DNA of 24,000 nucleotides. It comes from an uncultured Gammaproteobacteria bacterium (GTDB lineage Bacteria > Patescibacteriota > Microgenomatia > UBA8517 > UBA10165). The stretch is from positions 14,313 to 38,312 of the forward strand of contig CAZLZK010000002.1 in NCBI GenBank assembly GCA_964564005.1, given 5' to 3'. Positions 1 to 24,000 of this stretch are shown here, in pieces (position 1 is the first letter of the stretch; every line of letters starts with the position of its first letter). The position numbers and the translations under genes are program-made. Below the pieces are notes generated by a model. That model had not been told where the DNA came from and did not search any database. It saw only the letters and a program-made list of their open reading frames with translations.

Positions 1-641
1 GATGAAGAAAGGCCAACAAATAGCGCTCCTAGAAAATAATTTTTTGCTGTTGGCTTTTGCCATAATTTAATTGAAAAAAGAAATGCCATTAAAAACAAAA
101 AATTCTGGGGTATATCTGGGGTGGAATAATGTGCATCCCTAACCCAAAGTGGGGTAACACTCAGAGCAAGGGCGGATAAAAGAGCAATGCTTCGTTTTTT
201 ATATAAAGCTTCTGCGATTTTATATGTTAGGTAAACCGTACCTACTCCAAACAATACGGTTGTGAAACGACTGGCTATCCGAAGAGCATCTTGGAAAAAG
301 TAGATGGTTTTCTCAGTTACAAATTGCTGGAAATTGGTGACATCAAAAAATGCTTCTTTCGCCCCAAAATCAAAACCAGTCAGCCCGTGTACATTGTAGA
401 TAACAAAGAGAGTGATTCCGCGAATTAGTGATTGGAGATATATGATGGAGGAACCATATATAAAGGGGTAAGGTTCAACATTTGGGTCAAGATCGCCTTT
501 TTGAAAAATATTAAGAAGAATACTATTTGCAGGTTTAAATAGGACTGGCTCCTTCTGATGCAAAAGGGTATTAGGAAAAATCCCTAAGGTATTTAAAACA
601 AGAGAGAGTAGGATAACTAAAATTAACAAATACTTATTCAT
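1..641 (-). CDS. GT-C fold membrane glycosyltransferase (GT39/GT83, ArnT/PMT-like), 5' part only; the gene runs off the window start
   Basis: Absent from the supplied ORF track because it has no in-window stop. Reading the minus strand from the ATG at 641-639 gives MNKYLLILVILLSLVLNTLGIFPNTLLHQKEPVLFKPANSILLNIFQKGDLDPNVEPYPFIYGSS...RIASRFTTVLFGVGTVYLTYKIAEALYKKRSIALLSALALSVTPLWVRDAHYSTPDIPQNFLFLMAFLF..., with no stop down to base 3. It has an N-terminal anchor helix, an acidic first loop, then several hydrophobic helices. Its ATG overlaps the upstream TGA (ATGA, 638-641). Confidence 0.7.
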   Translation of the reverse strand, partial: MNKYLLILVILLSLVLNTLGIFPNTLLHQKEPVLFKPANSILLNIFQKGDLDPNVEPYPFIYGSSIIYLQSLIRGITLFVIYNVHGLTGFDFGAKEAFFDVTNFQQFVTEKTIYFFQDALRIASRFTTVLFGVGTVYLTYKIAEALYKKRSIALLSALALSVTPLWVRDAHYSTPDIPQNFLFLMAFLFSIKLWQKPTAKNYFLGALFVGLSS

Positions 642-2332
642 GGTTCTGACTTAGTATGTTCTAAATCATTTTTCCAAATTTTCAATATAGGAACGCCTTC
701 TACTTTCACCTCATAAACAGGTACTAAATATTTTTCAACATACCGCCAGGCTTCACTATCAGGTTTATATGTGTCATCGAAGGTTAGCTCCATTAAATAC
801 TCTCCTTCTTTTGCATCCCCACTAAAATAAGATTTATCGCTGGTATCTGAGTAAATATAGTTAATATCCTTTCTTAAAAGAATTACTGGGGCATTAGCAG
901 GGGTACCTTGAATAAGAGCCAATTTTGCATCTTTCGGGGCATTGGTATTTATCCACTTTATCCCTTGAAAGTAGGCGTTTCCAAAACTATTTCCCCATGA
1001 AGGAAAATTCCTCTCTTTAGCCCCCGGGAGCCCTCCAATTAGAGAATTAAAATATACATTCTCGTTGGGGTGCAACTTTACCAAGACAATAACTGGCCAG
1101 AGAAATGCTAACATCAGTCCAATTTTGACCATCAGATTGTTTCTTAACCAAATCGAAAGCTGCCAAGCTCCAAGTCCAGCAAGAAGTGCAAGTGCTGGCA
1201 AGAATTCTAAAATCTGTCTTATACCGCCATAAATAACAGTTCCGGGAAAGGAAACTCGGGCAATCGGGATAATAAACCACAATAGCCACAAGAGAGTTAC
1301 TCCTTTATATGAATTGCGATTTCGAAATGCAGAAAAAATACCGATCCCTGAAAGGGCAAGTACCAGAGGGGGTGTAGTAAATAAAATCCACTGCATCGGA
1401 TATGTATTAAAGCCAAAGAGGAAAAATCTATCCGGTTGATACTGAGTGCCTATCCCGCTTTCTCTATAGAAATTAAAGATTTTTAAGAGACTCTGCGGCC
1501 ACCCTTGCTGTAAAGAAGGCCACAGCAGAGTCAAAATTCCTAGAATAATAAAGGGTGTAGCCAAAAGGATGACAATATATAATTTCGGGATGGAGGAAGC
1601 AATTTTGTTCGGTGAAGAAATTTTGCCACGATAGCGATAAAGAAGATATGAAACAAGAATTATGGGGAGAAAGAGAATATTTAACTTTGTACCAAGACCG
1701 AGTGCAAAGAATACAATTGATATAACCAACCAACGAAGGCTTCCATTTTTGAGTGAGTTATAAAAGCTCCAGACTGTCGCAGCAAAAAATGCAGCTTGAG
1801 GAGGATCTTTAACATTAAAGTGCGCCTCCGACCAAAAAAGTGGATAGGTTGCTAGGGCCAGGAATGCTATGCTCGCGGCAAATGGCCCGAACGTACTCGA
1901 AGCAAAAGCAACAACTACAAACACTAAAACACTTGAAGCAAGGATATTAAATAAATGATGGGCTGAAATGTCATCGAGTATTCCAAGTTTCTGAAAGAAA
2001 ATATAATTCGAAAGTGCAGCTAGTTCATCACTTAGGGGCGGGTGACCAAGATCCTTATATTTCAACCAGAATTCGCCATTGTGATAGTCGTTTTGATAAA
2101 AACTTCTTCGTGGAATAGGAATCTCATTTGGGTCCCCATTGGTACCCTGTAAATCTATATCAGACAAGTCCTGGTAACTTTTATTACCAGTCAAAAAATA
2201 ATATAGATAAGCTTGACCACGTCTAAGGTGAATTGCATCATCCCAGGAAACGCCATAATGCGAAAGAGTTAAAAACCCAAGGATAAAAAAACCAAGTGGT
2301 AATAGAAAAAGGGGTGAAAATTTTTTTAACAT
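638..2332 (-). CDS. GT-C fold membrane glycosyltransferase (GT39/ArnT-like); acceptor unknown
   Basis: 564-aa track ORF. It is strongly hydrophobic with many TM helices. The first loop carries the acidic motif HYGVSWDDAIHLRRGQ typical of GT-C enzymes. A soluble C-terminal domain follows. Gap of 32 nt to the upstream gene and a 4-nt ATGA overlap with the downstream gene. Confidence 0.8.
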   Translation of the reverse strand: MLKKFSPLFLLPLGFFILGFLTLSHYGVSWDDAIHLRRGQAYLYYFLTGNKSYQDLSDIDLQGTNGDPNEIPIPRRSFYQNDYHNGEFWLKYKDLGHPPLSDELAALSNYIFFQKLGILDDISAHHLFNILASSVLVFVVVAFASSTFGPFAASIAFLALATYPLFWSEAHFNVKDPPQAAFFAATVWSFYNSLKNGSLRWLVISIVFFALGLGTKLNILFLPIILVSYLLYRYRGKISSPNKIASSIPKLYIVILLATPFIILGILTLLWPSLQQGWPQSLLKIFNFYRESGIGTQYQPDRFFLFGFNTYPMQWILFTTPPLVLALSGIGIFSAFRNRNSYKGVTLLWLLWFIIPIARVSFPGTVIYGGIRQILEFLPALALLAGLGAWQLSIWLRNNLMVKIGLMLAFLWPVIVLVKLHPNENVYFNSLIGGLPGAKERNFPSWGNSFGNAYFQGIKWINTNAPKDAKLALIQGTPANAPVILLRKDINYIYSDTSDKSYFSGDAKEGEYLMELTFDDTYKPDSEAWRYVEKYLVPVYEVKVEGVPILKIWKNDLEHTKSEP

Positions 2333-2364: not shown

Positions 2365-5046
2365 TCAGTTCTTATGAAATTCTTTAATTATTCCTCTGTC
2401 TTTTGCCTCTCGAATACCGATATTACGTAGCTTAGCCGATTCTACTTCAAGTTCCAACGGATCATAAGGGAGGTTTATACTCACATTCTTTAAAAGTGTC
2501 CCCCCTGGGGAAAATGTTAAAGAATAGTCTGTCGTTTGATTGATTCTATCAACTGGTACTCTTCTAATAAGCTCGCCTTTATCAGTAACTATTTCAACGT
2601 CGAGAAAGAGTAGGGGTGCTGCTTGAGAAAGTATTTCATTCATCTCTATTTGTCTTTGAATGTTAATAAAAGGGTTATTAATAAAATTTTCGGCTTTGCT
2701 TGGATCAATTTCTGAAAAAATTGAGTCTACTACCTCAATTTCTGACATTGTAGGGGCGTCATTAGAGAGAGTTTCAGTAATGTCCATTCTTACATACCTT
2801 GCCCAAGTTGCACTAAATTCTTCAATAACTTTTTTACCGTCCTGTATCTCTCCACCCTTGCTTACCTCTTTAACCGTTCTCCAGTCTTTCCCGTCCAACG
2901 AAGTCAATAATGTATAAGAAGTTGGAGTTAGGGTATGCTGCCAGTTTGTCCAAACAACCTTGTTAACATTCCTAACTTGACCCAAATCCATTGTGATCTG
3001 TTCGTGCTTATTATCGTGCCAATAAATTCGGTGTCCTCTCCAACTTGTTTCGACATCATTATCAATTAAATTGACCCTTTCTTGATACATCCACTCTGAC
3101 AGGGTAGAAATTTTGACGCGGGAATAATAATCCAATTTTGACAAAAGGTATGCAATCATTTTTCTCTTTTCTCCATGGGAGTATTGTTTAATACCATTTT
3201 GAGAATAGGGATATTTAATATCGCGCTTGGCAGACGTTTTTGCTTTAAATTCCAAAACCACAGGTGAAAGCGGAGACACATCGTCAACCAAGAGATTCCA
3301 GGATCGGGGCGTATTTTCTTCTGACGCTATATCTTGCCAATCTGACCCATCTTTCAAAAGCTCTCTTGACTCATTTGTCGTATTAACTAGCTCTAGAGAG
3401 GAGTCATAATAGAAGGTATGGAGTTTGTTTATAGACTCTATATTTTTTGATAATGCTGATAGAAGTTCATCATAATTTGTGATTAGTGAGAAATCATATC
3501 TATCAACTCCATAGTAGATAGCAATGGCTGTTGTATTAGGCATTGAACCAACAGAGAAAAAATCACTAAATTGTGCTCGAGACCTTGAGTCACTTGCTAC
3601 GTCGAAATAAAATATAGAACCCTTCTCTAAAACAGGGACATCCCTCTTTAATGTTCGATAAAACTGTTGTGTGGGTCTACTAGTTTCTACCACAAAAGTC
3701 CTTTGGTATTTAAAACTTAGTAAAGAATTTACCGCCACAACAAAAACTAACGGTATTAAAGGAATAAATATATATTTTCTTGACAATTTTTGTCTCTTCA
3801 GTAAAGAATAAGCTAGGAAGGTTAAGGAACCCAAAATTAAACTGTAGCCAACGGAAGCATAATATAAATACCGGTGTACGGTAGCAAAAGTTGCTTCAGG
3901 GTATTTGATAAAATAGCTAAAAATCTGTGAGATAGTAAAAAACAGTCCAAAAAGTATCCCCAGCACAAGAAGCTTATACTTCGGCCATAAGGCAAATGAC
4001 GAAGCTAATAGAAATGTAAAAGCATACATGCCTAAGGCTCCAGATAGGCGAACATCGGTGTTTCTATACCAATATAAGTTCTGACTGGAAAAATATTGAT
4101 TCACTATAAAAGAAACGCATAATATAACCAAGGTTACGATTTTAACACCTCTTTTGGTTCCAAAGAAGGATAAAATAACCCAAGTAGATAAAGAAAAGGA
4201 CAATAAAGTCAAAAGCTGTAAATTTGCCGAAAACAAGTTTATTAACCTGTTTTGAATAACATTAGGAAAAAAAACACTACCAGAGGTAGCAAACAAAGTA
4301 GTCAGAATTTCAACTTTCCCATGCATTAAATCCTCGAATATCCCCGCAAGTGCAAAAGTTCCAGGAGTCTCATTCTTTAGGTAAAACAGATAAAAAATTA
4401 CCCAAAATGGAGCTTGTCTTATAAACATCTTTAAAAGTTTTATAGGGTTAAAAGGGAAAATTCCTAAAATAACATCCAAGACTAACACCGAGAAAATTAA
4501 ACTATGGGAACGAATAAAAATAAATTGTACTGATGCCAGAAATAATCCTAAGCTTAATAAGTAAAATTTGAGCTGGTTTTTTCTAAAAAATATAACCAGA
4601 CTCCAGAGTAGTAAAAGTAAGACTATTAAACCAACATTATTTTGCCAAGAATTGGAGATCTTTAGCATAGAATTAGATCCAACATAACCTGCCGCAAAAA
4701 TTAAAGTAGAAAAGTATGCGGTTTTCTTATTCCCGAACAATTCTTTTGCTAAAAGAGAAAAGGAATAAGCTGCTAAAAGAAAAAGCAAAAAGCCTACGAA
4801 AAAATAACCAAAAGGGTTTAACCCAAAAAATTTATAGAAAGGGATAAATGGTGTAATTGTATATTTATAAGGACCTTCCCCAAATGGCCCCGCTCCATAA
4901 CTCCCTGCAGGTCCATCAATGTGTTGCAATTTAAAAATTACAGCTGCATCATCTTGATAAAAATTCATTAAAAGGGTTTGGCCATAAGAAATAAGAGCTA
5001 TAATCAATACTAAAAGCAAGAGGAGTATTTTTTTAGAAATTTTCAT
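2365..5046 (-). CDS. Polytopic GT-C-like membrane protein fused to a C-terminal F5/8 type C (discoidin) carbohydrate-binding domain
   Basis: 893-aa ORF. The N-terminal half is multi-TM with the acidic first-loop motif NFYQDDAAVIF. The region encoded at about 2730-3070 matches the discoidin pattern: DVETSWRG..ITMDLGQVRNVNKVVWTNW..YTLLTSLDGKDWRTV..ARYVRMDITE..MSEIEVVD. The start overlaps the upstream GT2 stop by 14 nt. Confidence 0.75.
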   Translation of the reverse strand: MKISKKILLLLLVLIIALISYGQTLLMNFYQDDAAVIFKLQHIDGPAGSYGAGPFGEGPYKYTITPFIPFYKFFGLNPFGYFFVGFLLFLLAAYSFSLLAKELFGNKKTAYFSTLIFAAGYVGSNSMLKISNSWQNNVGLIVLLLLLWSLVIFFRKNQLKFYLLSLGLFLASVQFIFIRSHSLIFSVLVLDVILGIFPFNPIKLLKMFIRQAPFWVIFYLFYLKNETPGTFALAGIFEDLMHGKVEILTTLFATSGSVFFPNVIQNRLINLFSANLQLLTLLSFSLSTWVILSFFGTKRGVKIVTLVILCVSFIVNQYFSSQNLYWYRNTDVRLSGALGMYAFTFLLASSFALWPKYKLLVLGILFGLFFTISQIFSYFIKYPEATFATVHRYLYYASVGYSLILGSLTFLAYSLLKRQKLSRKYIFIPLIPLVFVVAVNSLLSFKYQRTFVVETSRPTQQFYRTLKRDVPVLEKGSIFYFDVASDSRSRAQFSDFFSVGSMPNTTAIAIYYGVDRYDFSLITNYDELLSALSKNIESINKLHTFYYDSSLELVNTTNESRELLKDGSDWQDIASEENTPRSWNLLVDDVSPLSPVVLEFKAKTSAKRDIKYPYSQNGIKQYSHGEKRKMIAYLLSKLDYYSRVKISTLSEWMYQERVNLIDNDVETSWRGHRIYWHDNKHEQITMDLGQVRNVNKVVWTNWQHTLTPTSYTLLTSLDGKDWRTVKEVSKGGEIQDGKKVIEEFSATWARYVRMDITETLSNDAPTMSEIEVVDSIFSEIDPSKAENFINNPFINIQRQIEMNEILSQAAPLLFLDVEIVTDKGELIRRVPVDRINQTTDYSLTFSPGGTLLKNVSINLPYDPLELEVESAKLRNIGIREAKDRGIIKEFHKN

Positions 5047-5839
5047 AAAACTTATCTAATTTTTTTATTCTATCGTCTAAGCTTTTTGGGGATTGAAACA
5101 AGTCATCTCTAAACCCAATCCTCGCTAATATATAGCGGTATAATATCTTAAAAGTATCTAAAGAATAATTAAAACTATGTTTTAGAGTTGCTCCTCTTTT
5201 TCCTCCCTCGTATCTAGTTTCAACAGGAACTTGGGTTATCTTGATTCCATGGAATATTGCCTGCGCTATAAGTTCAAAACTAAAAATAAAGCTATTTGAA
5301 TTGTTTTCATAGTTTACTTTCGAGAGAAGTTCTTTTGTATAGACTCGAAAACCCTGATGAAAATCGTTAATTCTTGTTCCAAAAATAATATTATCAATAA
5401 AGTTTAATATTCTAAGTGGAATAATCTTCCAAAAAAACATTCCACTCACTAACGCTTTATTTATATTACTGAAACGATCTCCCACAATAAACTTTGCTCC
5501 TTTTTCTACTTCTTTAATAGCAAGTGGAATAGCTGATGGTTTATATTCTCCGTCTGGATGAATATCAATAATTACGTCAGCACCTTTTTTTAATGCTATA
5601 TACAATGCTCTCTTAAGATTCCCACCGTAACCCTGATTTACTTTGTTGTAATAAGACTCAATTCCAAGTTTTTTAGCTAAGTTATAAGTATTATCTCTGG
5701 ACTTATCATCAACTAAAACAACTTCTCCTGAATAATATTTTTTAAACTCTTTATAAAAACCAGCCAAAGTTTTTTCTGCGTTATAGGAAATCAGAACAAC
5801 GACTATTTTTATGCCGGTCTTTGTCATCGTAAAGCCCAT
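5033..5839 (-). CDS. Family 2 glycosyltransferase, polyprenyl-phosphate sugar synthase type (DPM1/ArnC/GtrB-like)
   Basis: GT2 signatures: IKIVVVLISYNAEKTL, VVLVDDKSRDNT, and DIHPDGEY as the DXD-like motif. I place the start at the ATG at 5839 (MGFTMTKTG...), or possibly 5827. The 336-aa track ORF would extend to 6043, but that N-terminal extension is non-homologous and overlaps the divergent plus-strand gene. AAGAG lies 8 nt upstream of 5839. Confidence 0.8.
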   Translation of the reverse strand: MGFTMTKTGIKIVVVLISYNAEKTLAGFYKEFKKYYSGEVVLVDDKSRDNTYNLAKKLGIESYYNKVNQGYGGNLKRALYIALKKGADVIIDIHPDGEYKPSAIPLAIKEVEKGAKFIVGDRFSNINKALVSGMFFWKIIPLRILNFIDNIIFGTRINDFHQGFRVYTKELLSKVNYENNSNSFIFSFELIAQAIFHGIKITQVPVETRYEGGKRGATLKHSFNYSLDTFKILYRYILARIGFRDDLFQSPKSLDDRIKKLDKFYENF

Positions 5840-5949
5840 TTTATACTCTTTTCTTTTAGTTCGCCAGACTACTTGTTTAATAAACTCACGATAATGTGTT
5901 AATATTTGCTTTAAGAAAAATTCTCCCCCACACAAGACGAGAGAGTGAA
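5840..5949. promoter_or_regulatory. Divergent intergenic region, presumed to carry promoters for 5839(-) and 5950(+)
   Basis: A 110-bp AT-rich gap between two divergent starts. On the plus strand there is an extended -10 candidate: TGT at 5897-5899 followed by TAATAT at 5900-5905, about 45 nt upstream of the ATG at 5950. No convincing -35 was found on either strand. Confidence 0.35.
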
Positions 5950-6837
5950 ATGGCACAAGCAGAAATAATAGTTTTTGGAGGTTCAGGCCTTGTTGGAGAG
6001 GCATTCCAACGATATTCCCGCAACGAAGAACTCTTAGCTCCACCGTATAATGAAATTGACGTAAGAAACTCTGAACAACTAAAAAGATTTTTAGGTGAAA
6101 ATAAAGCTTCTACGGTTATTAACTTTGTTGGTCATACAAACCTGGTAGAAGCAGAGAAAGAGCGCGGCAATAAGGAGGGGGAAGCGTGGCAACTTAATGT
6201 TAATGCTGTTGAAAATGTCGCAGAAGCTTGCGCAAGAGAAAACAAATTTTTAATTCATATCTCTACCGATGTAGTGTTCCCTGGGACTGAAGATTTTCCG
6301 GGACCTTATCCTGAAGACAGGGAGCCAGTAGATGACCCTACTAATCTTAGCTGGTACGGGTATACAAAATTAAGGGGCGAAAAATCTGTAAAAGAAAGAG
6401 CCAAGAAATGGGCCATACTTAGAATATCTCACCCTTTTGGGAATGCATCTTCCCAAAAAGATTTCGCAAGAAAGGTTATTGGTTATATACAGGCAGGATA
6501 TGTTTTATTTAATGACCAACACTTTACTCCCACTTACTTAAAAGATCTAACCGAAGTTTTATTAAAAATAGTATCTTCTGGACAAACTGGTGTCTTCCAC
6601 GTTGTTTGCAGCGGGTTAACTACACCTTTCAAATTTGCACAGCACATAGCAAGAAACAAAAAATTGAAAGAGGAAGTAAAGATGGGGGAAATTGATGAAT
6701 GGGCTAGGCAAAATCCCAACCATTATCCAAGAGCAAAGCATGGAGGTCTAAAAACCCTCTCTACACGAACCAAACTTGGGATCAAGTTTCATACCTGGCA
6801 AGAAGCCCTCGACGAATTTTTACCAGAAATCACTTAG
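5950..6837 (+). CDS. RmlD-like NAD(P)H-dependent nucleotide-sugar 4-ketoreductase (dTDP-4-dehydrorhamnose reductase family)
   Basis: Begins MAQAEIIVFGGSGLVGEAF, a Rossmann GxxGxxG close to the N-terminus. Also has ISTDVVFPG...YPED...P.NLSWYGYTKLRGE (S...YxxxK). The length and overall pattern fit the RmlD substrate-binding family. Start chosen at the ATG at 5950, preceded by GAGAGAG; the track start at 5896 adds 18 non-homologous residues. One of only two plus-strand genes. Confidence 0.7.
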   Translation: MAQAEIIVFGGSGLVGEAFQRYSRNEELLAPPYNEIDVRNSEQLKRFLGENKASTVINFVGHTNLVEAEKERGNKEGEAWQLNVNAVENVAEACARENKFLIHISTDVVFPGTEDFPGPYPEDREPVDDPTNLSWYGYTKLRGEKSVKERAKKWAILRISHPFGNASSQKDFARKVIGYIQAGYVLFNDQHFTPTYLKDLTEVLLKIVSSGQTGVFHVVCSGLTTPFKFAQHIARNKKLKEEVKMGEIDEWARQNPNHYPRAKHGGLKTLSTRTKLGIKFHTWQEALDEFLPEIT

Positions 6838-7546
6838 ATAGGAAATTAGAAATCCAAGTATTTATTATCAAGAAGAAGACTTTTACACCCCAATACGCCT
6901 GTTTTAGAAAATTACCAGTATATCTATGAACACCCACTCTTGCTCTATAATGAATAGGAATTTCAATGAATCTTATCCCCCTTTTGACAGTACTTAATAG
7001 AAGTTCTGTGGTAAACAAATGACCATCTGTTTTAACCTTATCAACTTGCTTTTTTAAACTTTTGTTACTATAAAGACTAAGTGTACAAATTACATCACTT
7101 AATGGATTCGTCAGGAAAAGTAATGTAATTAATTTACCACAAAATACATCTAAAACTCTTCGAGAGAAAGTCATATCAGACTTCTTACCAATCAATGGAA
7201 CATGCGTTCTTGATCCAAAAACAGCATCAAAATCATCACTATACGCTAAAAGTTTCACCACATCTTTTCCGTCGTAAGTACCATCAGGATCAGCAAAAAT
7301 AACAAGATCAGCTTTAGTATTCTTAACACCGGTTTTAATCGCCCTGCCGTAACCTTCTCTGGGTTCTTTGATAAATCGTGCTCTAGTCCTCTTAACTTCA
7401 CTTTCTGTTCCTTCCTCGGCATTGTTATCCACCACAATAATTTCATCAACATATCCAGTTGAATCAAATTCTTGTATTACACTAAACAAAGTTTTCTTTT
7501 CTCTGTAAGTTGGGAAAATAACTGCTACTGTCTTTCTGCTCCACAT
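6830..7546 (-). CDS. Family 2 glycosyltransferase, polyprenyl-phosphate sugar synthase type
   Basis: 238 aa. Motifs VAVIFPTYREKKTL, IIVVDNNAEEGT and FADPDGTY (DXD). No obvious TM helices. Its stop overlaps the stop of the convergent RmlD-like gene by 8 nt (6830-6837). Confidence 0.8.
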   Translation of the reverse strand: MWSRKTVAVIFPTYREKKTLFSVIQEFDSTGYVDEIIVVDNNAEEGTESEVKRTRARFIKEPREGYGRAIKTGVKNTKADLVIFADPDGTYDGKDVVKLLAYSDDFDAVFGSRTHVPLIGKKSDMTFSRRVLDVFCGKLITLLFLTNPLSDVICTLSLYSNKSLKKQVDKVKTDGHLFTTELLLSTVKRGIRFIEIPIHYRARVGVHRYTGNFLKQAYWGVKVFFLIINTWISNFLSK

Positions 7547-12339: not shown

Positions 12340-12360
12340 AGCTTGTTCTCGCAGACTCGA

Positions 12361-12402
12361 ATTAAGCAAAGCTTGTCTTCGATTAAGCAAAGCTTGTCTT
12401 CG
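12361..12402 (-). repeat. Two perfect tandem copies of a 21-bp unit (gene-sense CGAAGACAAGCTTTGCTTAAT); a degenerate third copy lies at 12331-12351
   Basis: Direct reading: 12361-12381 equals 12382-12402 (plus strand ATTAAGCAAAGCTTGTCTTCG). 12331-12351 (CATAAGCATAGCTTGTTCTCG) matches 16/21 and covers both candidate start codons of the SDR gene. The repeat sits in the 93-nt gap between the aminotransferase stop (12433) and the SDR start. Confidence 0.9.
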
Positions 12403-15277: not shown

Positions 15278-15391
15278 CTGTGGTCTTCAAACCGCAGATG
15301 AATTGACTCACGAGTCCGCCGACTAGCGGACGAGTAATTCACAAGCAAATCTTGCTTGTGAAGCTTAGAAGATACCCCGCCAATGGCGGGG
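15278..15391. other. Cluster of four stem-loops in a locally GC-rich intergenic segment (possible structured RNA, terminators or operator)
   Basis: Read directly. A: 15278-15297, CTGTGGT/ACCGCAG, 7 bp with one G-U on the plus-strand RNA and a C-A mismatch on the minus strand. B: 15314-15331, GTCCGC-cgacta-GCGGAC, 6 bp. C: 15338-15362, TTCACAAGCAA-atc-TTGCTTGTGAA, a perfect 11 bp. D: 15375-15391, CCCCGCC-aat-GGCGGGG, 7 bp. Confidence 0.6.
15375..15391 (-). terminator. Candidate intrinsic terminator after the GT-C/CBM gene
   Basis: On the minus strand the 7-bp all-GC-rich hairpin CCCCGCC-ATT-GGCGGGG starts 4 nt after the TGA at 15396-15398. It is followed by TATCTTCT, which is a U-rich but interrupted tract. 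Confidence 0.4.
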
Positions 15392-17774: not shown

Positions 17775-18330
17775 AATCAAAAGTTCCCCCTTTCTTCCTA
17801 AATTGCCTTTCAATTTCTAAGCCGCCACTTATCAGTGATCTATAACTTTCTACATCTCTCACATAATGCCCTTTATCCAAACTTCTCAAAATGTGGCTAA
17901 GAATATTCCACTTATAAATTGGAGGTATAGCTTCTATCATAATAATTTTTCCATTTGACATAAGCAACGATTTCATGACTCCTAAACTAGCTTGCAGTTC
18001 TCTATCGTTCAGGTGGTGTAACACCCCCACAACCACAATCAAGTCAAATCCTTTGTGCAACCTTAACTTTGTCACGTCACCAACCCGAAATGTGTACTCT
18101 TGATATTTTCTCTTGGCATAAGTGATGGCCCTTGGATCAATATCGATACCAAGATATTGTTTTGGAGAAAAGAGTGGCGCTAAGATTCCAATCCCACAAC
18201 CAAAATCTAAGACATTATTGTACTTCTGCCCTTTCAAGACATCACTGATAATCTTTCTAATAACAAAATAATTAAAACTTAGAACCCTAATAAAAAGATA
18301 GGACAAAAAATATTGTAATCTGTCAAGCAT
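17734..18330 (-). CDS. Class I SAM-dependent methyltransferase (Methyltransf_11/25-like), substrate unknown
   Basis: 198 aa. Motif I is VLDFGCGIGILA, post-I is GIDID, and motif II/III is FDLIVVVGVLHHL. Confidence 0.75.
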   Translation of the reverse strand: MLDRLQYFLSYLFIRVLSFNYFVIRKIISDVLKGQKYNNVLDFGCGIGILAPLFSPKQYLGIDIDPRAITYAKRKYQEYTFRVGDVTKLRLHKGFDLIVVVGVLHHLNDRELQASLGVMKSLLMSNGKIIMIEAIPPIYKWNILSHILRSLDKGHYVRDVESYRSLISGGLEIERQFRKKGGTFDYGVFIIRAKVGKT

Positions 18331-18361: not shown

Positions 18362-18392
18362 ATTGTAATCTACAACGATTGCTTTCACAATC

Positions 18393-18421
18393 TTTACTAC
18401 AAAATGAAAATCTGTTATATT
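18393..18421 (+). promoter_or_regulatory. Sigma70-like promoter candidate for the cupin gene: TTTACT-N17-TATATT
   Basis: TTTACT at 18393-18398, an exact 17-nt spacer, then TATATT at 18416-18421. The -10 ends 35 nt upstream of the ATG at 18457. Confidence 0.45.
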
Positions 18422-18456
18422 GCGCATTGAAGGCTATTTGGATAAACAAAACAGAG

Positions 18457-18843
18457 ATGGAAAAAATATTCTACAAAAATACATTGATAGGAATCCGCCT
18501 TTCGGTATTTCCAAAAGGCTCTATCGCCCACACAGATGCCAAGGAAGCACTGGGGCTTTTAACCCTTGTGCACCCTAAAGGCACCTCTCTTCGGGCACAC
18601 GTGCACACCCCACAAAAAAGAATCACCAAGACCCTACAGGAATGTTTTATCGTAATTCGGGGAAAGGTCAGAATAGACCTTTATGGACCAGATAAGAAGT
18701 TCTTTAAATACATTATTCTTCAGACGGGTCAAGCTTTTCTGGCACTTGCCGGCGGCCACGGCTTCCACTTTCTTAAAGATTCCGCGCTTATAGAGCTTAA
18801 AAATGGTCCTTTCAAAGAAGACAAGGTGTTTATTAATAACTAA
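18457..18843 (+). CDS. Small cupin-fold protein (possible nucleotide-sugar isomerase/epimerase or WbuC-like); function uncertain
   Basis: Cupin motif 1, G-X5-H-X-H, is present as GTSLRAHVH. This is followed by ECFIVIRGKV and a second His-containing strand, GGHGFHF. Start chosen at the ATG at 18457; the track start at 18379 is a TTG upstream of the candidate promoter. About 128 aa. Confidence 0.5.
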   Translation: MEKIFYKNTLIGIRLSVFPKGSIAHTDAKEALGLLTLVHPKGTSLRAHVHTPQKRITKTLQECFIVIRGKVRIDLYGPDKKFFKYIILQTGQAFLALAGGHGFHFLKDSALIELKNGPFKEDKVFINN

Positions 18844-18904
18844 AAACAGGGAGATTAAGAAGTGTCATTCGCAACCCTTATTTAGACCAGCCTCACTTAT
18901 TCCC

Positions 18905-18934
18905 AGAGGGTAGCCTTTACCCATCCCTCTTTTT
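18905..18934 (+). terminator. Weak candidate intrinsic terminator for the cupin gene
   Basis: AGAGGG (18905-18910) pairs with CCCTCT (18925-18930) and is followed directly by TTTT (18931-18934). An alternative inner stem is GGGTA/TACCC (18908-18912 / 18918-18922). The loop of the outer stem is long (14 nt). The element overlaps the 3' end of the convergent DUF218 gene. Confidence 0.25.
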
Positions 18935-19621
18935 AAGATACTCAAAAAGTTCGTCGAATGTGGCGAGGGCACCTTCCTTTTGATATGTGAAAATTCTTTT
19001 TATTTCGTCTTCTATATGTTCAATCCTTGGTTTAAGCTCGTTCCCTTGGGAACCCATTACTCTTTTATTCCAATCAGTTAGCTGAGGAAACATGCACCAA
19101 ACATTGATTGACAAACCTCTTTCGTTTATAACCCTTACTGTACCAAGCATGGCTCTAACTACCTGATGGGGCTGGGTCAATAATACTGCGCTCTTAAACC
19201 CTCTTTGTCTTGCCGTTTCTAAAAAGGCGTCACTCTCTGTTCGAGTATGAAATCCTTTCTCACCCTCAAGATGAGAGCTATAAATTATTTGCTCTTGTTT
19301 AACTCCTAGTCTAACTAGTCTGTCTGTCCACAAGGACTTCCCGGGATATGCCATTCGAGGGGTTGTTTCACCAACTCTCTCTCCCTCAGAATCGGCTAGA
19401 ACAATGTACCTGGCCCTTTCTTCTCTAATCATATCGGCAGCTACTTTAAATATATCTTGCTTCCCAGCATCAAAATAAGAGCGGGCATGGAAAAAGATTG
19501 CATCAACTGATATTGGAGGAAAATCACTCAGGAGCACAACCGTCGCTCGAGTTAAATCAATTAATTTCTTTCTTTCTACTTCCTGGCTCTCAGGGCCCGG
19601 CGCTTTCGGAACTTCTGCCAT
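18917..19621 (-). CDS. DUF218 (YdcF/ElyC/SanA-like) domain protein
   Basis: 234 aa. The pattern VDAIFFHARS...RYIVLADSEGE...LVRLGVKQEQIIYS...TRTESDAFLETARQRGFKSAVLLTQPHQVVRA parallels the DUF218 consensus (DAIVVLGG...I.SGG...L...GV....I..E..S.NT.ENA......KS..LVTS..H..RA). Confidence 0.6.
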   Translation of the reverse strand: MAEVPKAPGPESQEVERKKLIDLTRATVVLLSDFPPISVDAIFFHARSYFDAGKQDIFKVAADMIREERARYIVLADSEGERVGETTPRMAYPGKSLWTDRLVRLGVKQEQIIYSSHLEGEKGFHTRTESDAFLETARQRGFKSAVLLTQPHQVVRAMLGTVRVINERGLSINVWCMFPQLTDWNKRVMGSQGNELKPRIEHIEDEIKRIFTYQKEGALATFDELFEYLKKRDG

Positions 19622-19652: not shown

Positions 19653-20423
19653 TCAATCTTCAGAACTGGGTCCTTTGGACCTTCTGCAACAGAACATAAT
19701 TTTCCAATCGCTCGCTGTGGCTTTCTTATTGGGTTGCAAGAGAGGTGAACATAAGACCTCTTCTAGTCCCGCTTCTTGAAACGCCGAGCGAACTTGCATT
19801 GGCGTCCAAAGGGTCTGGGTGAAAGAGAAATCGCCTTTTTCTGTCCTCTCGTCGTCAGTTGCTTTTATGAAGTAATTAAGCGTTGTTGTCTGATTGAAGA
19901 AATCTGTTTTGGAAGTCAGCTTACAGTTTATTGTCTTCCCTTTATATTTTAGCGAAGTGTTTTTAGAACCCGGCGGATCTTTAATCGCGGCGACGCCGTT
20001 CCACATATCGAAAACAAAAATGCTACCCTTGCCAAGCACACGAGAGACACCTCGCATAAAAGAGTGTAAACCTTCTGTATCCGTAATATAAGTTACAACA
20101 TTAAACATGGCTATTGCTAAATCAAAATTCCTTTCTTTTAAACTTTCAACAGGGGTGTGAAGTATCTTGACATTTGGAGAATCACCCAACTTCTTTTTGG
20201 CAATTTTCACCATCTCAAGGTCAGTGTCTATGGCAACTAAATTTATGCCTTTCTTGGATAAAAGCCTCGTATGATTTCCGGTGCCGCAACCAATTTCTAG
20301 GATTTTTTGAGGAGATTTTATACCGAACTTTCTAGAGAGGTTAAAAACTAAGTTAGTTTCCTTTTTATAGTCTTTGTTCTGATAAATGGCGTCATAATAT
20401 TTATGATACAAGCTACTTGGCAT
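19653..20423 (-). CDS. Class I SAM-dependent methyltransferase with TylM1/DesVI-like architecture (candidate NDP-aminosugar N-methyltransferase)
   Basis: 256 aa. The N-terminal YDAIYQNKDYKKE parallels TylM1/DesVI YD..Y..(G)KDY..E. Motif I is ILEIGCGTGNHT. FDLAIAMFNVVTYI parallels FS.V..MFSS.GYL. The C-terminal beta lid ends in ...VRSAFQEAGLEEV. Overlaps the upstream aminotransferase stop by 11 nt. Confidence 0.6.
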   Translation of the reverse strand: MPSSLYHKYYDAIYQNKDYKKETNLVFNLSRKFGIKSPQKILEIGCGTGNHTRLLSKKGINLVAIDTDLEMVKIAKKKLGDSPNVKILHTPVESLKERNFDLAIAMFNVVTYITDTEGLHSFMRGVSRVLGKGSIFVFDMWNGVAAIKDPPGSKNTSLKYKGKTINCKLTSKTDFFNQTTTLNYFIKATDDERTEKGDFSFTQTLWTPMQVRSAFQEAGLEEVLCSPLLQPNKKATASDWKIMFCCRRSKGPSSED

Positions 20424-21522
20424 TTTGAAAATCCTTTACAACGTTACAAACATACTCCACTTGTTCCCTAGTTAACGTTGGGAAAACCGGTAAACAGATT
20501 CCATGTTCATATCCATATACTGCATTTGGAAAATCACTATCTTTATAATTTTTACCTTTAAATTTTAGGTATGAGAAACCCGGTTGTTTGTGCAATGGGT
20601 AGAAAAATGACCTTGGCTCTATGTCCTTTTGCCTCATATACGCCATTAGCTCGTGGGCCCGCTCAACTAAAATACAAACCCTGAAGGGTATTATCTCTAC
20701 TCCTTTATCCGGCTCAAAGAAGGTGACTCCTCTCACTCCTGCCAGCAACTTCTTATATAAAGCCAGTATTTTAAGTTTTCTTTTTTTAATCTCTCTAAGT
20801 TTTCCTAGCTGAACTAAACCAACCGCTATTTGAAGATCAGTCATTCTGAAGTTATAGCCTATCTTAGGATGTATCCAAGTACCCCTATTTAACCTTCCTT
20901 GCTGCCTGAAGTAAACCATTTTCTCATGCAGTTTTTCATCACTTGTTACCACAAATCCTCCTTCGCCTGTAGTAATAGTTTTATCAGCAAAAAATGAAAA
21001 ACATCCAATTTCACCAAAAGTCCCTGCATGTCTACCTCCACGATGTACTCCAATTGCTTCACAGGCATCTTCAATAATTTTTAACTTATGCTTTTTTGCA
21101 AATTTTAGTACACTTGTCATGTCGGCAACCGTCCCAAAAATATGCACCGGCATAATAGCTCTGGTTCTTTTAGTTACCAGCCTATCAGCATTTGATAGAT
21201 CTATTTGAAAATTTTTGCGATTTACATCTACAAAGACGGGGGTTGCACCAGTCATCTCAACTGAAGTTGCTGAAGCGAGAAAGGTAAAATCAGGAACTAT
21301 AACCTCGTCCCCCGGTCCGATGCCTAAAGCTCTTAACCCTAAATAAAGCGCCAAGGTGCCATTTGGAGCAAAAACACCATATTTTGCGCCCATTAACTTA
21401 AGCAGCTTTTCACTAAATTCCTTAGCTTTTGGCCCTTCAGTTATCCAATTATTGTCAAAGCAGTCTTTAATTGCTCTATACTCTTCCTTCCCAAGCCAAG
21501 GTGATAACTGAGGAACTTTCAT
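20413..21522 (-). CDS. DegT/DnrJ/EryC1-family sugar aminotransferase (third paralogue; 4-aminotransferase-like)
   Basis: 369 aa. Motifs NWITEGPKAKEFSEKL, GDEVIVPDFTFLASA and PVFVDV. The lysine context is FSFFADKTITTGEGG. Confidence 0.85.
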   Translation of the reverse strand: MKVPQLSPWLGKEEYRAIKDCFDNNWITEGPKAKEFSEKLLKLMGAKYGVFAPNGTLALYLGLRALGIGPGDEVIVPDFTFLASATSVEMTGATPVFVDVNRKNFQIDLSNADRLVTKRTRAIMPVHIFGTVADMTSVLKFAKKHKLKIIEDACEAIGVHRGGRHAGTFGEIGCFSFFADKTITTGEGGFVVTSDEKLHEKMVYFRQQGRLNRGTWIHPKIGYNFRMTDLQIAVGLVQLGKLREIKKRKLKILALYKKLLAGVRGVTFFEPDKGVEIIPFRVCILVERAHELMAYMRQKDIEPRSFFYPLHKQPGFSYLKFKGKNYKDSDFPNAVYGYEHGICLPVFPTLTREQVEYVCNVVKDFQNAK

Positions 21523-21537
21523 GATGAGAATAGTAAT

Positions 21538-22791
21538 CTAACTTCTCCTGAAAATCAAGTAGCCCTTTGTTGCCATCCCCAATAGATATAATCCATGTTT
21601 TACTACATGAGCTTTTGACTCACCATAGATTCTTGGGTAATAACGCATCGGCACTTCCCCAAATTTTAGACCCATCCTAGCTGCACCATACAAAAGCTCA
21701 AAATCTCCAAACGGATCTTGTAATCCTAGAAAACCCCACCTCTCAAACAAAAGGTCGTAATCCCTTTTAAAGATTGCCTTAATGCCCGACAGGACATCTG
21801 TTGTTCTCTGGCCTAAGAAAAATGAAAACCATTTTGCAAAAAAGATGTTACCCAACTTATTAGGAATGGGCATAGCTTCTGATGCAAACGGATACACAAA
21901 TCTGCTACCTTCTATAAATTCAAATCGTCCTTGCTTCATTGCTTCATAAAAATATTTTAGATCTCCTGTGTCGGATGTACCATCACCTTCATAAAGAATA
22001 ATTATATCTCCTTTAGCATCTTTAAAACCAACCCTGATTGCATCCCCCTGCCCTTTACCCGGTTGCCCAATAACCCTTATGTTTTTCCCAGGATATTTTT
22101 TAATCATCTTCTCTATTTCCTCTCTTGTCCCATCGTTCGAGTGTCCTTCTACAAATAAAATTTCTTGTTCTTTGCAGACAGCTGGCAGCGCCTTAACTAT
22201 TTTTTCAATATTTTCTTTCTCATTTCTAACAGTTATGCAAACCGTTAGACTCTCTTGCAAAACTCGAGAGAAAAGTTCTGGTAAAGGTCGGGCCAAGATA
22301 AACTGATCAAGTTTTAAAAAATCAAAAAATGGGAGAATTACAGCAACCCAATTTAGTGTAGGTCCAACGCCCGCTGCAAAAATGGGACAGAGCGTTCTTT
22401 TAAATATCCTGGTTACCTCAAAACCGGATCCCGAAAGGTAGACTCTTGTATCATCGATTGATAACCAGTTTTGTACGCCTTCTTGGCGTTTGAGCTTAAA
22501 TCTTTCAGCTAAAGTAAGAATCCACTGCCATAAATAATTATGCTGATAAATTAAAACTCTTGTTGACGGGTGACAAAACTTTGGAAGAGTCTGCAATAAG
22601 TTCATTATATCTTTACTTTTATTTAAAGACCCGTTTAAAAAGATATAATCAAACTTTTCATCTGACTCAATTTTTTTCTTAAAACGCCCTTCTGCATCAA
22701 AGATTAAAACCTTTTTATCCTTCGGAATAATAAACCCCAATGTTTGCTTTATTCTTCGATGGTAATATTTATGACTTATCAGGGGTCTCAT
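21538..22791 (-). CDS. Family 2 glycosyltransferase with an N-terminal degenerate methyltransferase-like domain
   Basis: 417 aa. The C-terminal half is GT2: LTVCITVRNEKENI, FVEGHSNDGT and LYEGDGTS. The N-terminal roughly 150 aa has the back half of a class I MTase fold (FDYIFLNGSL..D...LL..L...C.P.TRVLIYQHNYLWQ..L.LAERFKL......NWLSIDD....L..SGFEV). At the glycine-rich SAM loop position it reads KKVLIFDAEGRF. A hydrophobic linker follows. Confidence 0.7.
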   Translation of the reverse strand: MRPLISHKYYHRRIKQTLGFIIPKDKKVLIFDAEGRFKKKIESDEKFDYIFLNGSLNKSKDIMNLLQTLPKFCHPSTRVLIYQHNYLWQWILTLAERFKLKRQEGVQNWLSIDDTRVYLSGSGFEVTRIFKRTLCPIFAAGVGPTLNWVAVILPFFDFLKLDQFILARPLPELFSRVLQESLTVCITVRNEKENIEKIVKALPAVCKEQEILFVEGHSNDGTREEIEKMIKKYPGKNIRVIGQPGKGQGDAIRVGFKDAKGDIIILYEGDGTSDTGDLKYFYEAMKQGRFEFIEGSRFVYPFASEAMPIPNKLGNIFFAKWFSFFLGQRTTDVLSGIKAIFKRDYDLLFERWGFLGLQDPFGDFELLYGAARMGLKFGEVPMRYYPRIYGESKAHVVKHGLYLLGMATKGYLIFRRS

Positions 22792-24000
22792 CTATTTTCT
22801 GACAATTGTAGGGGCTACTCGACCAAGAGAAAAAACAATTTTATTAGATCCAAGAACATTCCATATATCACAAATAGTACATTTTCTGTTCGTAACTTTT
22901 CTAATATAATCTAATGTCAATTTCTTAAATGGAGAGTGATTCATTGCTATCACGACAACATCTGCTCCACGCAGCGCTTCTTCTAGAGAGAAAGAGTCTA
23001 TGTACGGGTCGTGTGGGTAGACTTCTGCACCTTCTCTAATTAAATATTGCTGCAATTTCAATGACAGAGAGTTTCTAGTATCATCAATATCTCTTTTGAA
23101 TGTAAGCCCTAGTAAGGCCACTTTTTTTTCAGACAAAGAACCTACTTCTCTTTTCAATTTTTCTATTAAAAATCCAGGAATATTTTCGTTAATTCTCCAA
23201 GCGGCCCCCACCAAATCTAGATACGGGCTTCTATCGATTAAGAAGAAACTATCTTTAACTAAACAAGCGCCTGCAGTAAGTCCGGGTGGTTTCACCCTCG
23301 CTCTTTCATAATCTTCATTTACAAATTTTAAAATATCATAAATATTGCGATTGTGGCTTTCAGCAATTAGCAGAAATTCATTGCCAATTGCGAAATCAAT
23401 ATAGCGATAGGCATTATTAAAAAGTTTTGCTAACTCAGCCGACTTTGAATCAGTAAGAAAAATCTTATCGGTGATTTTCTTAAAAATTAAACCTGCCTTT
23501 TCTTGACTTTTTGAATCATCCGCACCAATTATTTGTGGCAGCTTGTAAAGCTCTTGAATGGCATGGCCTTCTCTTATTCTCTCGGGACAGGCTGCCAGAT
23601 AAATATCTTTTCCTACTTCAAAATTCAAACTCTTTTTAATGAACCTTGCAATATATTCTGTTGTACCAACCGAGAGTGTACTCCTTAAGATAAAAAGCTG
23701 TCCCTTCCGTATCGACGATTGAAACTTCTCAAAAAAATCAGTTATCTGCGTAATGTTTGGGTTTAAGCTATCATCAATCGTTGTTCCAAGAGTTAAAATG
23801 ACTGTATCGAAATTCGGTAAAAGATTAAGTAAAGTATTTTCATGAGCAACAGTAAAACCATTGCCATAGACTTCTTTTAAAATCTTCTCTGCGCCTTCTT
23901 CAAGGAAGGGCATTTTACCATCCTTTAGAGATTGCAGACGAGTTTCATCTATGTCAACACCCACAACCTCAAATCCTTCCTTAGCTAGAACTAAAGCAAG
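22792..24000 (-). CDS. UDP-glucose/GDP-mannose dehydrogenase-family nucleotide-sugar 6-dehydrogenase, 5' end beyond the window
   Basis: The frame stays open upstream of the track GTG at 23964 to the window edge (...LALVLAKEGFEVVGVDIDETRLQSLKDGKMPFLEEG...), and the Rossmann GxGxxG is missing, so the gene is N-terminally truncated by the window. The catalytic Cys context is PGLTAGACLVKD. A C-terminal UDP-binding domain is present. Its stop abuts the next gene's ATG. Confidence 0.85.
   Translation of the reverse strand, partial: LALVLAKEGFEVVGVDIDETRLQSLKDGKMPFLEEGAEKILKEVYGNGFTVAHENTLLNLLPNFDTVILTLGTTIDDSLNPNITQITDFFEKFQSSIRKGQLFILRSTLSVGTTEYIARFIKKSLNFEVGKDIYLAACPERIREGHAIQELYKLPQIIGADDSKSQEKAGLIFKKITDKIFLTDSKSAELAKLFNNAYRYIDFAIGNEFLLIAESHNRNIYDILKFVNEDYERARVKPPGLTAGACLVKDSFFLIDRSPYLDLVGAAWRINENIPGFLIEKLKREVGSLSEKKVALLGLTFKRDIDDTRNSLSLKLQQYLIREGAEVYPHDPYIDSFSLEEALRGADVVVIAMNHSPFKKLTLDYIRKVTNRKCTICDIWNVLGSNKIVFSLGRVAPTIVRK

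Follow-up and report, generated by a model that had tools for sequence, protein, structure and literature searches.

Three-component glycosylation systems combine a family 2 glycosyltransferase (GT2) that loads a sugar onto polyprenyl phosphate, a flippase and a polytopic glycosyltransferase of the C fold (GT-C). Examples are GtrA/GtrB/GtrC, CsbB/GtcA/YfhO, PpgS/Rv3632/Rv3779 and the GT136 system of Citrobacter (PMC11127046). Both this mechanism and GT-C enzymes that bear carbohydrate-binding modules (CBMs) are established; such modules are known from the Emb enzymes, AftD and the founder of GT136 (PMC11127046). Other described systems used here for comparison are the Arn system (PmrHFIJKLM), which brings 4-amino-4-deoxy-L-arabinose (L-Ara4N) to lipid A, and the mycobacterial arabinan and mannan machinery, in which donors from Ppm1 and DPPR synthase are used by Emb, Aft and Mpt enzymes. 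In the present study, a 24-kb stretch of DNA, referred to as the window, was analyzed that holds four GT2 genes, four GT-C genes and multiple sugar-tailoring genes. The window is most likely part of a surface-glycan island in a genome of the Candidate Phyla Radiation (CPR), from the Microgenomates and more precisely from Candidatus Daviesbacteria. Homologs of its CBM32-bearing GT-C carry names of Candidatus Daviesbacteria or Microgenomates proteins, and Daviesbacteria genomes, among them the complete CP066688.1 (820,589 bp), are the source of related loci. CPR surfaces mediate attachment to host cells, and to our knowledge nothing is known experimentally about their glycans. In a study of Saccharibacteria, glycosylation in the CPR is called "unexplored" (PMC11623550).

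With a probability of roughly 60%, the window is a polyprenyl-phosphate-monosaccharide/GT-C island, in which tailored sugars are loaded on lipid, flipped and transferred to an extracellular acceptor. Cytoplasmic enzymes would tailor nucleotide sugars, after which four GT2s related to DPM1 and ArnC would each load one tailored sugar onto polyprenyl phosphate at the inner membrane face. A flippase, for which the window holds no candidate, would turn the lipid-linked sugars outward, and the GT-C proteins, with an acidic pair after their first helix, would transfer them to the extracellular acceptor. Gene content, the assignments to families and folds, synteny and the gene fusion in a relative are observations, from which the lipid carrier, the identities of the sugars, flipping, the GT2 partner of each GT-C and the acceptor are inferred. 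The features of the window are collected in Table 1.

Table 1. Genes and one hairpin of the 24-kb window, with the matches on which each assignment is based (E, expectation value; TM, transmembrane helix; SAM, S-adenosylmethionine; SDR, short-chain dehydrogenase/reductase; DPMS, dolichyl-phosphate mannose synthase; NDP, nucleoside diphosphate).
Feature	Position	Strand	Evidence
GT-C, N-terminal 213 residues; gene leaves window at left edge	1..641	-	PMT_2 E 1.3e-10, 42 bits (cut-off 26); PMT E 9e-7
GT-C, 564 residues	638..2332	-	PMT_2 E 3e-14; about 9 hydrophobic segments; DD at residues 31-32 right after TM1
GT-C of unclassified family, 893 residues	2365..5046	-	Membrane domain 1-470, extracellular beta-rich region, CBM32 (F5/8 type C) 652-764
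GT2, DPM1/AglJ-like, 268 residues, no TM	5033..5839	-	PF00535 E 8e-16; DPMS 5mlz E 9e-7
RmlD-like NDP-4-keto-sugar reductase	5947..6837	+	RmlD_sub_bind E 1e-51; rmlD model 154 bits, below cut-off of 224
GT2, DPM1/AglJ-like, 238 residues, last gene of long operon	6830..7546	-	PF00535 E 4e-17; AglJ model E 4e-23
NDP-hexose C-methyltransferase (zinc-binding, SAM and C-terminal domains)	7550..8797	-	Methyltransf_14 E 2e-53; Methyltransf_13 E 3e-21
GT2, ArnC-like, 241 residues	8832..9557	-	PF00535 E 1e-24; ArnC 9bhc/8vxh E 3e-17, covering ArnC residues 8-218
PglD/NeuD-type amino-sugar N-acetyltransferase	9580..10227	-	TIGR03570 188 bits, above cut-off of 160.8; PglD_N and Hexapep
DegT sugar aminotransferase, PseC/ArnB-like (C4)	10224..11369	-	DegT E 3e-123; PseC 345 bits; ArnB 307 bits (cut-off 631)
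SDR with UDP-uronic-acid 4-oxidase/decarboxylase signature	11356..12390	-	STSEVYG, YxxxK
DegT aminotransferase, WbpE-like by context	12433..13551	-	DegT E 1e-130; 52% identical and in same order in L011
Hexapeptide N-acetyltransferase, WbpD-like by context	13579..14175	-	Hexapep E 2e-22
GFO/IDH/MocA oxidoreductase, candidate UDP-GlcNAc(A) 3-dehydrogenase (WbpB-like), first operon gene	14186..15199	-	GFO_IDH_MocA domains
GC-rich hairpin	15375..15391	-	4 nt past stop of GT-C 15396-17774; 7 G-C pairs; top-ranked terminator-like site
GT-C, 792 residues	15396..17774	-	PMT_2 E 3e-8 and PMT E 4e-7, both above cut-off; DE pair after TM1
SAM methyltransferase	17734..18330	-	Methyltransf_25/11/12; 41-nt overlap, co-transcribed with GT-C 15396-17774
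WbuC-like cupin	18379..18843	+	TIGR04366 E 1e-8, 35 bits, below cut-off of 42; no Pfam or PDB match
Soluble protein of no known family, 234 residues, last gene of right-hand operon	18917..19621	-	
SAM methyltransferase, candidate amino-sugar N-methyltransferase	19653..20423	-	Methyltransf_25/11
DegT sugar aminotransferase	20413..21522	-	DegT E 5e-108; LegC and PseC models 250-260 bits
GT2 (residues 183-417, DPM1/AglJ-like) behind half-domain	21538..22791	-	PF00535 residues 183-312, E 1e-16; AglJ E 4e-24; DPMS 5mlz E 3e-9
UDP-N-acetylhexosamine-type 6-dehydrogenase (WbpA/WecC-like), leaves window at right edge	22792..24000	-	Three UDPG_MGDP_dh domains

The four GT2 genes named in a preliminary description of this DNA were all recovered as matches to PF00535, the family on which the GT2 calls are based, and equivalog assignments were judged by the curated cut-offs of NCBIfam. 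The best solved relative of three of the enzymes is the DPMS of P. furiosus (5mlz), and that of 8832-9557 is ArnC. The latter match spans the whole soluble part of ArnC, and the C-terminal membrane hairpin of ArnC is missing. For 5033-5839, AglJ, Dol-P-hexose transferase and PpgS score best among the NCBIfam models. When aligned, the four enzymes share family motifs, including R-I-Y-G-E-S-K (R-x-Y-G-E-S-K) in 21538-22791, which resembles the motif of DPM1. Judged by these relatives, the four GT2s would belong to the lipid-phosphate sugar synthase family and not to the chain extenders, a placement at the level of family rather than activity. Three of them are small and soluble, as had been described, but this applies only partly to 21538-22791, in which a hydrophobic hairpin (residues 134-167) lies ahead of the GT2 domain. 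In residues 1-170 of this protein, only the C-terminal half of a class I methyltransferase fold is matched, and the SAM-binding motif is degenerate. In the relative L005 (20545-22152), a GT2 is fused to a recognized methyltransferase domain, with the GT2 listed first. The N-terminus of 21538-22791 may be a decayed methyltransferase fusion that now serves as a membrane anchor.

For the GT-C protein 2365-5046, no GT-C match was obtained in Pfam or NCBIfam; Pfam gives only F5/8 type C, and PMT_2 is touched weakly by two of 45 family members (E >= 3e-4). The protein was modeled from an alignment of 45 homologs, and the full-length model has a predicted local distance difference test (pLDDT) score of 90.6. 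In Foldseek, CBM32 matches swamp the result of the full-length model, and AftD is also matched. Modeled alone, the membrane domain (residues 1-470) has a pLDDT of 91.3 and a predicted TM-score (pTM) of 0.92, and all its matches with a probability of 1.00 are GT-C enzymes (STT3, PglB, AglB, DPY19, ArnT and EmbC; TM-score 0.35-0.46). Transporter folds of the major facilitator type reach a TM-score of only about 0.15. An identity as Wzy or O-antigen ligase was rejected, as no such fold is present among the Foldseek matches. An oligosaccharyltransferase was also rejected, despite the top fold matches, as no WWDYG-like motif is present in any window GT-C or in the 45 family members. In the model, 13 membrane helices are present and a short helix starts at D32-D33, directly after TM1. 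D32 and D33 are invariant in the 45 homologs, and H391-R392-Y393 is conserved. Such an acidic pair after TM1, with its short helix, is the hallmark of GT-C enzymes.

The 13 helices place the C-terminal CBM32 of this protein outside the cell. The module is present in all 45 family members, and a conserved extracellular CBM32 favors a glycan acceptor over bare protein. The acceptor is therefore most likely a glycan, either a wall polymer or the glycan of a glycoprotein. The preliminary description had proposed that single residues are added to a protein or an envelope polymer; the CBM32 favors the glycan over the protein in this proposal, and room is left for the building of a polymer, as discussed below. 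With 264 representative relatives of the membrane domain among 1.84 billion proteins, 2365-5046 stands for a small GT-C family for which no model exists.

The other three GT-C proteins are recognized by PMT_2 or PMT above cut-off, and together with the GT-C-only fold matches of 2365-5046 this supports the four GT-C proteins of the preliminary description and their GT-C rather than Wzy- or ligase-like nature. DD or DE follows TM1 in all three complete window GT-Cs, and sequence searches of the window GT-Cs against PDB gave nothing useful. The protein 15396-17774 has an extracellular C-terminal domain of ~320 residues of no known family, its profile matches the family of the 564-residue GT-C with a probability of 94.5%, and paralogs at 27-29% identity are found in every relative. 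PMT (PF02366) is above cut-off for 1..641 and 15396-17774, and no MIR domain is present in either. The gene at 1..641 overlaps the stop of its upstream gene by 4 nt.

The stop of GT2 5033-5839 overlaps the start of the CBM32-bearing GT-C by 14 nt, and the two are translationally coupled. This is the only coupled GT2/GT-C pair in the window, and a strict "4+4" pairing is not supported. The adjacency is kept in relatives: the homolog of 5033-5839 lies directly upstream of the CBM32 GT-C in L003/L007, L005 and L008, and in L012 and L013 the GT2 lies one gene further upstream (within two genes). In L005, the conserved block includes the C-methyltransferase (68% identity), a GT2 (82%), the RmlD-like gene on the opposite strand (79%), a second GT2 (79%) and the CBM32 GT-C (45%). 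As in the window, the CBM32 GT-C of L008 and L009 is immediately followed by a homolog of 638-2332 (56-60% identity).

The preliminary description had also reported that the machinery of conventional polysaccharide loci is missing, and this was borne out. Among the 22 open reading frames (ORFs) of the window, no match was found to a phosphoglycosyltransferase (PGT), Wzx, Wzy, Wzz, an ATP-binding cassette (ABC) transporter, GT1/GT4 or GtrA/ArnEF. The intergenic gaps are at most 196 nt long and hold no membrane ORF, so that there is no room for hidden genes. In addition, no PGT, Wzy or ABC gene is present in about ten annotated 22-kb neighborhoods of relatives. The only Wzx-family match in these neighborhoods is a Polysacc_synt (MOP/Wzx-family) fragment in L010 (22032-22562), a distant relative in which it borders the GT-C array; the fragment may represent a polyprenyl-phosphate-sugar flippase or point to a conventional pathway. 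Numerous GT2s are found in the neighborhoods, along with methyltransferases and polytopic proteins, both PMT-type and unclassified, and polytopic GT-C-like genes number up to six or more in 22 kb. Also, a Pfam-recognized AftD-type GT-C is present in the island of L003, and larger GT2s of 310-343 residues and small proteins with 3-4 TMs are found. Such islands recur across the lineage, and the window with its "4+4" is one instance among them. The GT2/GT-C island is the normal architecture in Daviesbacteria relatives and not unique to the window. The preliminary description did not recognize the arrangement as a described system, and literature searches gave no paper on GT2/GT-C islands in CPR bacteria.

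In L008 (18934-21624) and L014 (16810-19470), a small DUF2304 membrane protein, a GT2 of 225 residues and a divergent polytopic protein of 519-525 residues stand together, and the polytopic protein in L014 has a weak PMT_2 match. These triads look like complete three-component sets. No DUF2304 gene is present in the window.

The operon from 15199 to 6830 holds a trio of WbpB/D/E-like genes followed by an SDR, a DegT aminotransferase and an acetyltransferase, and these form one contiguous run of seven genes that ends in the ArnC-like GT2. Since the two trios are contiguous up to this GT2, a single pathway is a better reading of them than two branches. The three separate amino-sugar branches of the preliminary description are therefore an over-count, and two of them are probably one. 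The WbpB/WbpE/WbpD-like trio would add a 3-acetamido group, after which the oxidative decarboxylase related to UDP-xylose synthase (UXS) and ArnA, the C4 aminotransferase and the PglD-type acetyltransferase would act. With the WbpA-like dehydrogenase at 22792-24000, UDP-N-acetylglucosamine (UDP-GlcNAc) would be converted to UDP-GlcNAc3NAcA and further to UDP-2,3,4-triacetamido-2,3,4-trideoxy-L-arabinose, and the ArnC-like GT2 would pass triacetamido-arabinose to polyprenyl phosphate. The seven-gene run is thus possibly an Arn-like pathway to a 2,3,4-triacetamido pentose, and among the proposed channels it is the clearest. This sugar, 2,3,4-triacetamido-2,3,4-trideoxy-L-arabinose, is known from the O-antigen of Psychrobacter cryohalolentis (PMC8040287). 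If the trios act separately, UDP-4-acetamido-4-deoxy-arabinose (UDP-Ara4NAc) and a diacetamido hexose would be formed instead. With either sugar, the second half of the run can be seen by analogy as a counterpart of the Arn pathway, with acetyl replacing formyl.

The assignments in this pathway differ in their scores. The acetyltransferase 9580-10227 is the only protein of the run over its NCBIfam cut-off. The oxidoreductase 14186-15199 reaches 120 bits with the model for archaeal UDP-GlcNAc 3-dehydrogenases, below the cut-off of 450, and the score with the ArnA model is 111 bits (cut-off 777). The best named PDB relatives of the SDR are human UXS structures (4lk3/2b69, E 2e-36). At the signature position of these SDRs, 4,6-dehydratases read STDEVYG. 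Ser-Glu at this position is the tabulated mark of the UXS and ArnA decarboxylases (PMC12820599). The dehydrogenase 22792-24000 matches the NDP-sugar dehydrogenase subfamily with 268 bits, above cut-off, with UDP-ManNAc dehydrogenases as its nearest models. A truncated dehydrogenase was considered here and rejected: the frame is open to base 24000 and the gene simply leaves the window.

In the relative L011, the gene order is a gfo-like gene, an acetyltransferase, two DegT genes (52% and 67% identity), an acetyltransferase::GT2 fusion and a protein with 12 TMs. The second DegT is the homolog of 10224-11369 and lies upstream of the fusion. The fusion (18151-19293, 380 residues) joins a hexapeptide acetyltransferase to an ArnC-like GT2 and is 58% identical to 8832-9557. 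Such a fusion ties amino-sugar N-acetylation directly to the GT2 step. The 12-TM protein downstream has no Pfam match.

Three further channels are suggested by the remaining genes. The C-methyltransferase, the RmlD-like reductase and GT2 6830-7546 would supply a C-methyl-branched deoxy sugar. The DegT at 20413-21522, the putative N-methyltransferase, the cupin and GT2 21538-22791 would form another channel, and GT2 5033-5839 with the CBM32 GT-C would form a further one. The C-methyltransferase adjoining a GT2 is kept in L003, L005 and L016, and the RmlD-like gene is 79% identical and syntenic in L005. The RmlD-like gene (plus strand) and GT2 6830-7546 (minus strand) are convergent, with 3' ends that overlap by 8 nt (6830-6837), an arrangement also seen in L005 and four short Logan contigs (L015-L018). 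The putative N-methyltransferase 19653-20423 matches the daptide amine N-methyltransferase model over the full length, with a score of 44 bits that lies below cut-off. Methyltransferase/GT-C pairs, such as that of 17734-18330 and 15396-17774, recur in relatives. The 154-residue form of the cupin (start 18379) was not found in the protein collection, and its true start probably lies downstream of 18379. Searches of Pfam, NCBIfam and PDB with the soluble protein 18917-19621 gave no match up to E = 10; on inspection of the sequence, it may resemble proteins of the DUF218/YdcF type.

Multiple observations weigh against the polyprenyl-phosphate-monosaccharide/GT-C island as proposed above. No GT2 score comes near the curated equivalog cut-offs (with ArnC, for instance, 76 of the 529 bits required), and lipid-phosphate transfer is therefore taken from family membership. 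The polyprenyl-phosphate-sugar synthase type of the preliminary description is likewise backed by the best relatives (DPMS and ArnC) and not by these scores. The membrane hairpin of ArnC and GtrB is missing from all four GT2s, and for 6830-7546, of which DPMS 5mlz is the best PDB relative, GpgS follows and is nearly as good. When the membrane domain of 2365-5046 was compared with the PMT_2 families of the window in hhalign, the probability was 23% at best, which is too weak for a claim of sequence homology between them. No flippase candidate (GtrA, SMR-type ArnE/F or MATE/MOP) is present in the window, and the absences cover the 24-kb window, with 14 kb of the source contig lying beyond them. 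For the sugars, the nucleotidyltransferase and 4,6-dehydratase that the deoxy-sugar channels need are not encoded in the window. The top PDB match of the SDR 11356-12390 is the unnamed 8vr2 (E 2e-88), the dehydrogenase and the decarboxylase sit in different transcription units, and in L011 the run is found without the SDR inside it.

Instead of adding single residues, the GT-C array could build most of a heteroglycan outside the cell from polyprenyl-phosphate-monosaccharides, as the Emb, Aft and Mpt enzymes do for mycobacterial arabinan and mannan, with the CBMs holding the chain. The invariable presence of CBM32 in the family, the matches of the full-length model to AftD and of its membrane domain to EmbC, the AftD-type GT-C in L003 and the high number of GT-C-like genes in relatives are all consistent with such assembly. 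So are the absence of cytoplasmic GT1/GT4 enzymes from the window, the lack of PGT and Wzy genes in all neighborhoods, where the Wzx family appears only as the L010 fragment, and the occurrence of CBMs in Emb, AftD and GT136 enzymes (PMC11127046). However, there is no sign of processivity, and no primer, anchor or initiating step was identified. The larger GT2s of relatives could extend chains in the cytoplasm, and the CBM of GT136 belongs to an enzyme that decorates side chains, so that a CBM alone does not imply polymerization. Extracellular polymer assembly is therefore considered unlikely.

In a second alternative, a conventional undecaprenyl-diphosphate repeat-unit locus is seen only in part: the GT2s extend chains, PGT, Wzx and Wzy lie outside the window, and the GT-Cs are independent, for example as protein O-glycosyltransferases that share one donor. 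The GT2 scores below all curated cut-offs, the missing hairpins, the 14 kb of contig beyond the window and the Polysacc_synt fragment next to the GT-C array in L010 would all fit this. It is nevertheless improbable, as each of the four GT2s has its best relatives, by structure and by family, among lipid-phosphate sugar synthases and not among chain extenders, the overlapping GT2/GT-C pair is conserved, the fusion in L011 is followed by a 12-TM protein, and none of the about ten neighborhoods holds a PGT, Wzy or ABC gene. Moreover, MOP/MATE proteins can themselves flip polyprenyl-phosphate-sugars in three-component systems (PMC11127046). Very improbable is direct O-glycosylation, in which PMT-like GT-Cs add sugars singly to Ser/Thr of pilins or S-layer proteins as the actinobacterial Ppm1/PMT do: the PMT matches of 1..641 and 15396-17774, the DE pair of the latter and the suspected but unexplored glycosylation of CPR pilins (PMC11623550) point to it, but MIR domains are lacking, ArnT-like transferases acting on lipids and glycans also fall under PMT_2, the CBM32 of 2365-5046 argues for a sugar-bearing acceptor, and none of the window genes codes for a candidate acceptor protein.

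The 22 genes of the window are closely packed, 20 on the minus strand and 2 on the plus strand, and its guanine-plus-cytosine (GC) content is about 0.38. The gene calls of NCBI on the 38,312-bp source contig match the shorter starts at 17774 and 5839. Six transcription units are suggested (24000 to 18917; the cupin on the plus strand; 18330 to 15396; 15199 to 6830; the RmlD-like gene on the plus strand; 5839 to 1 and beyond), with boundaries read from gene spacing, the 196-nt gap with a hairpin after a stop, and the two plus-strand genes. The hairpin at 15375-15391 likely ends the transcription unit of GT-C 15396-17774. The gap in which it lies (15200-15395, 196 nt) is the only long one and also holds a second GC-rich inverted repeat and a TTGACT box. 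Promoter and terminator site counts in the window are not above chance, and a scan of the window against Rfam gave no RNA elements. The GC content is mosaic, with 0.31-0.33 at 4000-6000 (the GT2/GT-C pair) against 0.43-0.44 at 9000-12000 (the amino-sugar operon), which may indicate separately acquired modules.

Additional modifying enzymes were observed in the islands of relatives. Radical SAM enzymes with B12-binding domains border or enter the islands in L008 (556-3867), L009 (648-3944 and 14735-16276) and L014 (487-4823 and 19509-20936), accompanied by cysteine desulfurase, NifU and ferredoxin-type genes, and could be radical methylases that act on sugars. Carbamoyltransferases, a YdjC-family protein and a formyltransferase are found in L003 (21783-22691), L005 (14269-15147 and 18815-20542) and L012 (503-1315), and suggest carbamoyl, formyl and de-N-acetylation sugar modifications that are absent from the window. 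The metagenome-assembled genomes of L009, L010 and L011, titled 'uncultured Gammaproteobacteria bacterium', hold GT-C arrays of the Daviesbacteria type with 29-60% identity to window genes, and their Gammaproteobacteria labels look wrong.

The island leads to two predictions: four lipid-linked donors, with an acetylated amino pentose supplied by an Arn-like route among them, and a small GT-C family without an existing model that bears a lectin-like module. A broader and rather doubtful proposal is that Daviesbacteria and related Microgenomates, with genomes of less than 1 Mb, make a surface heteroglycan wholly outside the membrane. In this proposal, at least four exotic polyprenyl-phosphate-monosaccharides, including an Arn-route triacetamido pentose, would be used by CBM-bearing GT-C arrays, with no undecaprenyl-diphosphate, Wzx/Wzy or ABC route, and 2365-5046 would found a CPR-restricted GT-C family in CAZy. 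If GT-C arrays take the place of Wzx/Wzy in these reduced genomes, a mechanism so far found chiefly in the decoration of side chains and in mycobacterial walls would become a general route of envelope building, and new enzymes would become available for glyco-engineering. If not, the island is one more variable glycan locus.

Compared with the three-component systems, the window likewise pairs a synthase-related GT2 with an adjacent GT-C, the founder of GT136 carries a C-terminal carbohydrate-binding module as 2365-5046 does, and relatives of the window hold matching triads of DUF2304, GT2 and GT-C. Those systems include a flippase, whereas the window has no flippase gene, and they consist of one set each, in contrast to the four GT2s and four GT-Cs found here. 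In addition, the GT2s of the window are without membrane anchors, their predicted donors are heavily tailored amino or methyl sugars instead of glucose, galactose or GlcNAc, and the host is a CPR bacterium.

The Arn system is matched in its order of chemistry, from an SDR with the STSE motif through a C4 aminotransferase, N-acylation and an ArnC-like GT2 to a GT-C of the ArnT/PMT_2 superfamily. However, no window protein reaches an Arn equivalog cut-off, and acylation in Arn is performed by a formyltransferase, whereas the window uses an acetyltransferase of the PglD type. No Formyl_trans, polysaccharide deacetylase (ArnD) or SMR (ArnE/F) match is present in the window, which also adds the WbpB/D/E-like trio directly upstream. 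CPR bacteria are not known to make lipid A. The mycobacterial arabinan and mannan system likewise clusters GT-C paralogs, some with CBMs, and EmbC and AftD are fold matches of 2365-5046, with an AftD-type GT-C in the island of a relative. It differs in its sugars, and the window shows no sequence match to PF11847 or Emb and no sign of polymerization.

For the nucleotide sugars, the WbpA/B/E/D pathway to UDP-2,3-diacetamido-2,3-dideoxy-glucuronic acid is mirrored by a dehydrogenase, a GFO/IDH oxidoreductase, a DegT and a hexapeptide acetyltransferase. The added SDR, second DegT and second acetyltransferase complete, on paper, the steps needed for the triacetamido-arabinose of Psychrobacter cryohalolentis. 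In that organism, the sugar is part of an O-antigen repeat unit, whereas in the window the last gene of the run is an ArnC-like GT2, and a lipid-monophosphate carrier is thereby implied. No window enzyme reaches an equivalog cut-off of either pathway, and the product is predicted. A Methanothermobacter cluster in which a decarboxylase SDR likewise stands with a DPM-synthase-like protein and a GT-C (PMC12820599) indicates that the general theme extends beyond CPR bacteria. In its mode of action the island resembles the three-component systems, and one of its operons resembles Arn, without being a member of either. The principle is established; the lineage is new, as are the dense packing of channels, the sugars predicted and the unclassified family of CBM32-bearing GT-C proteins.

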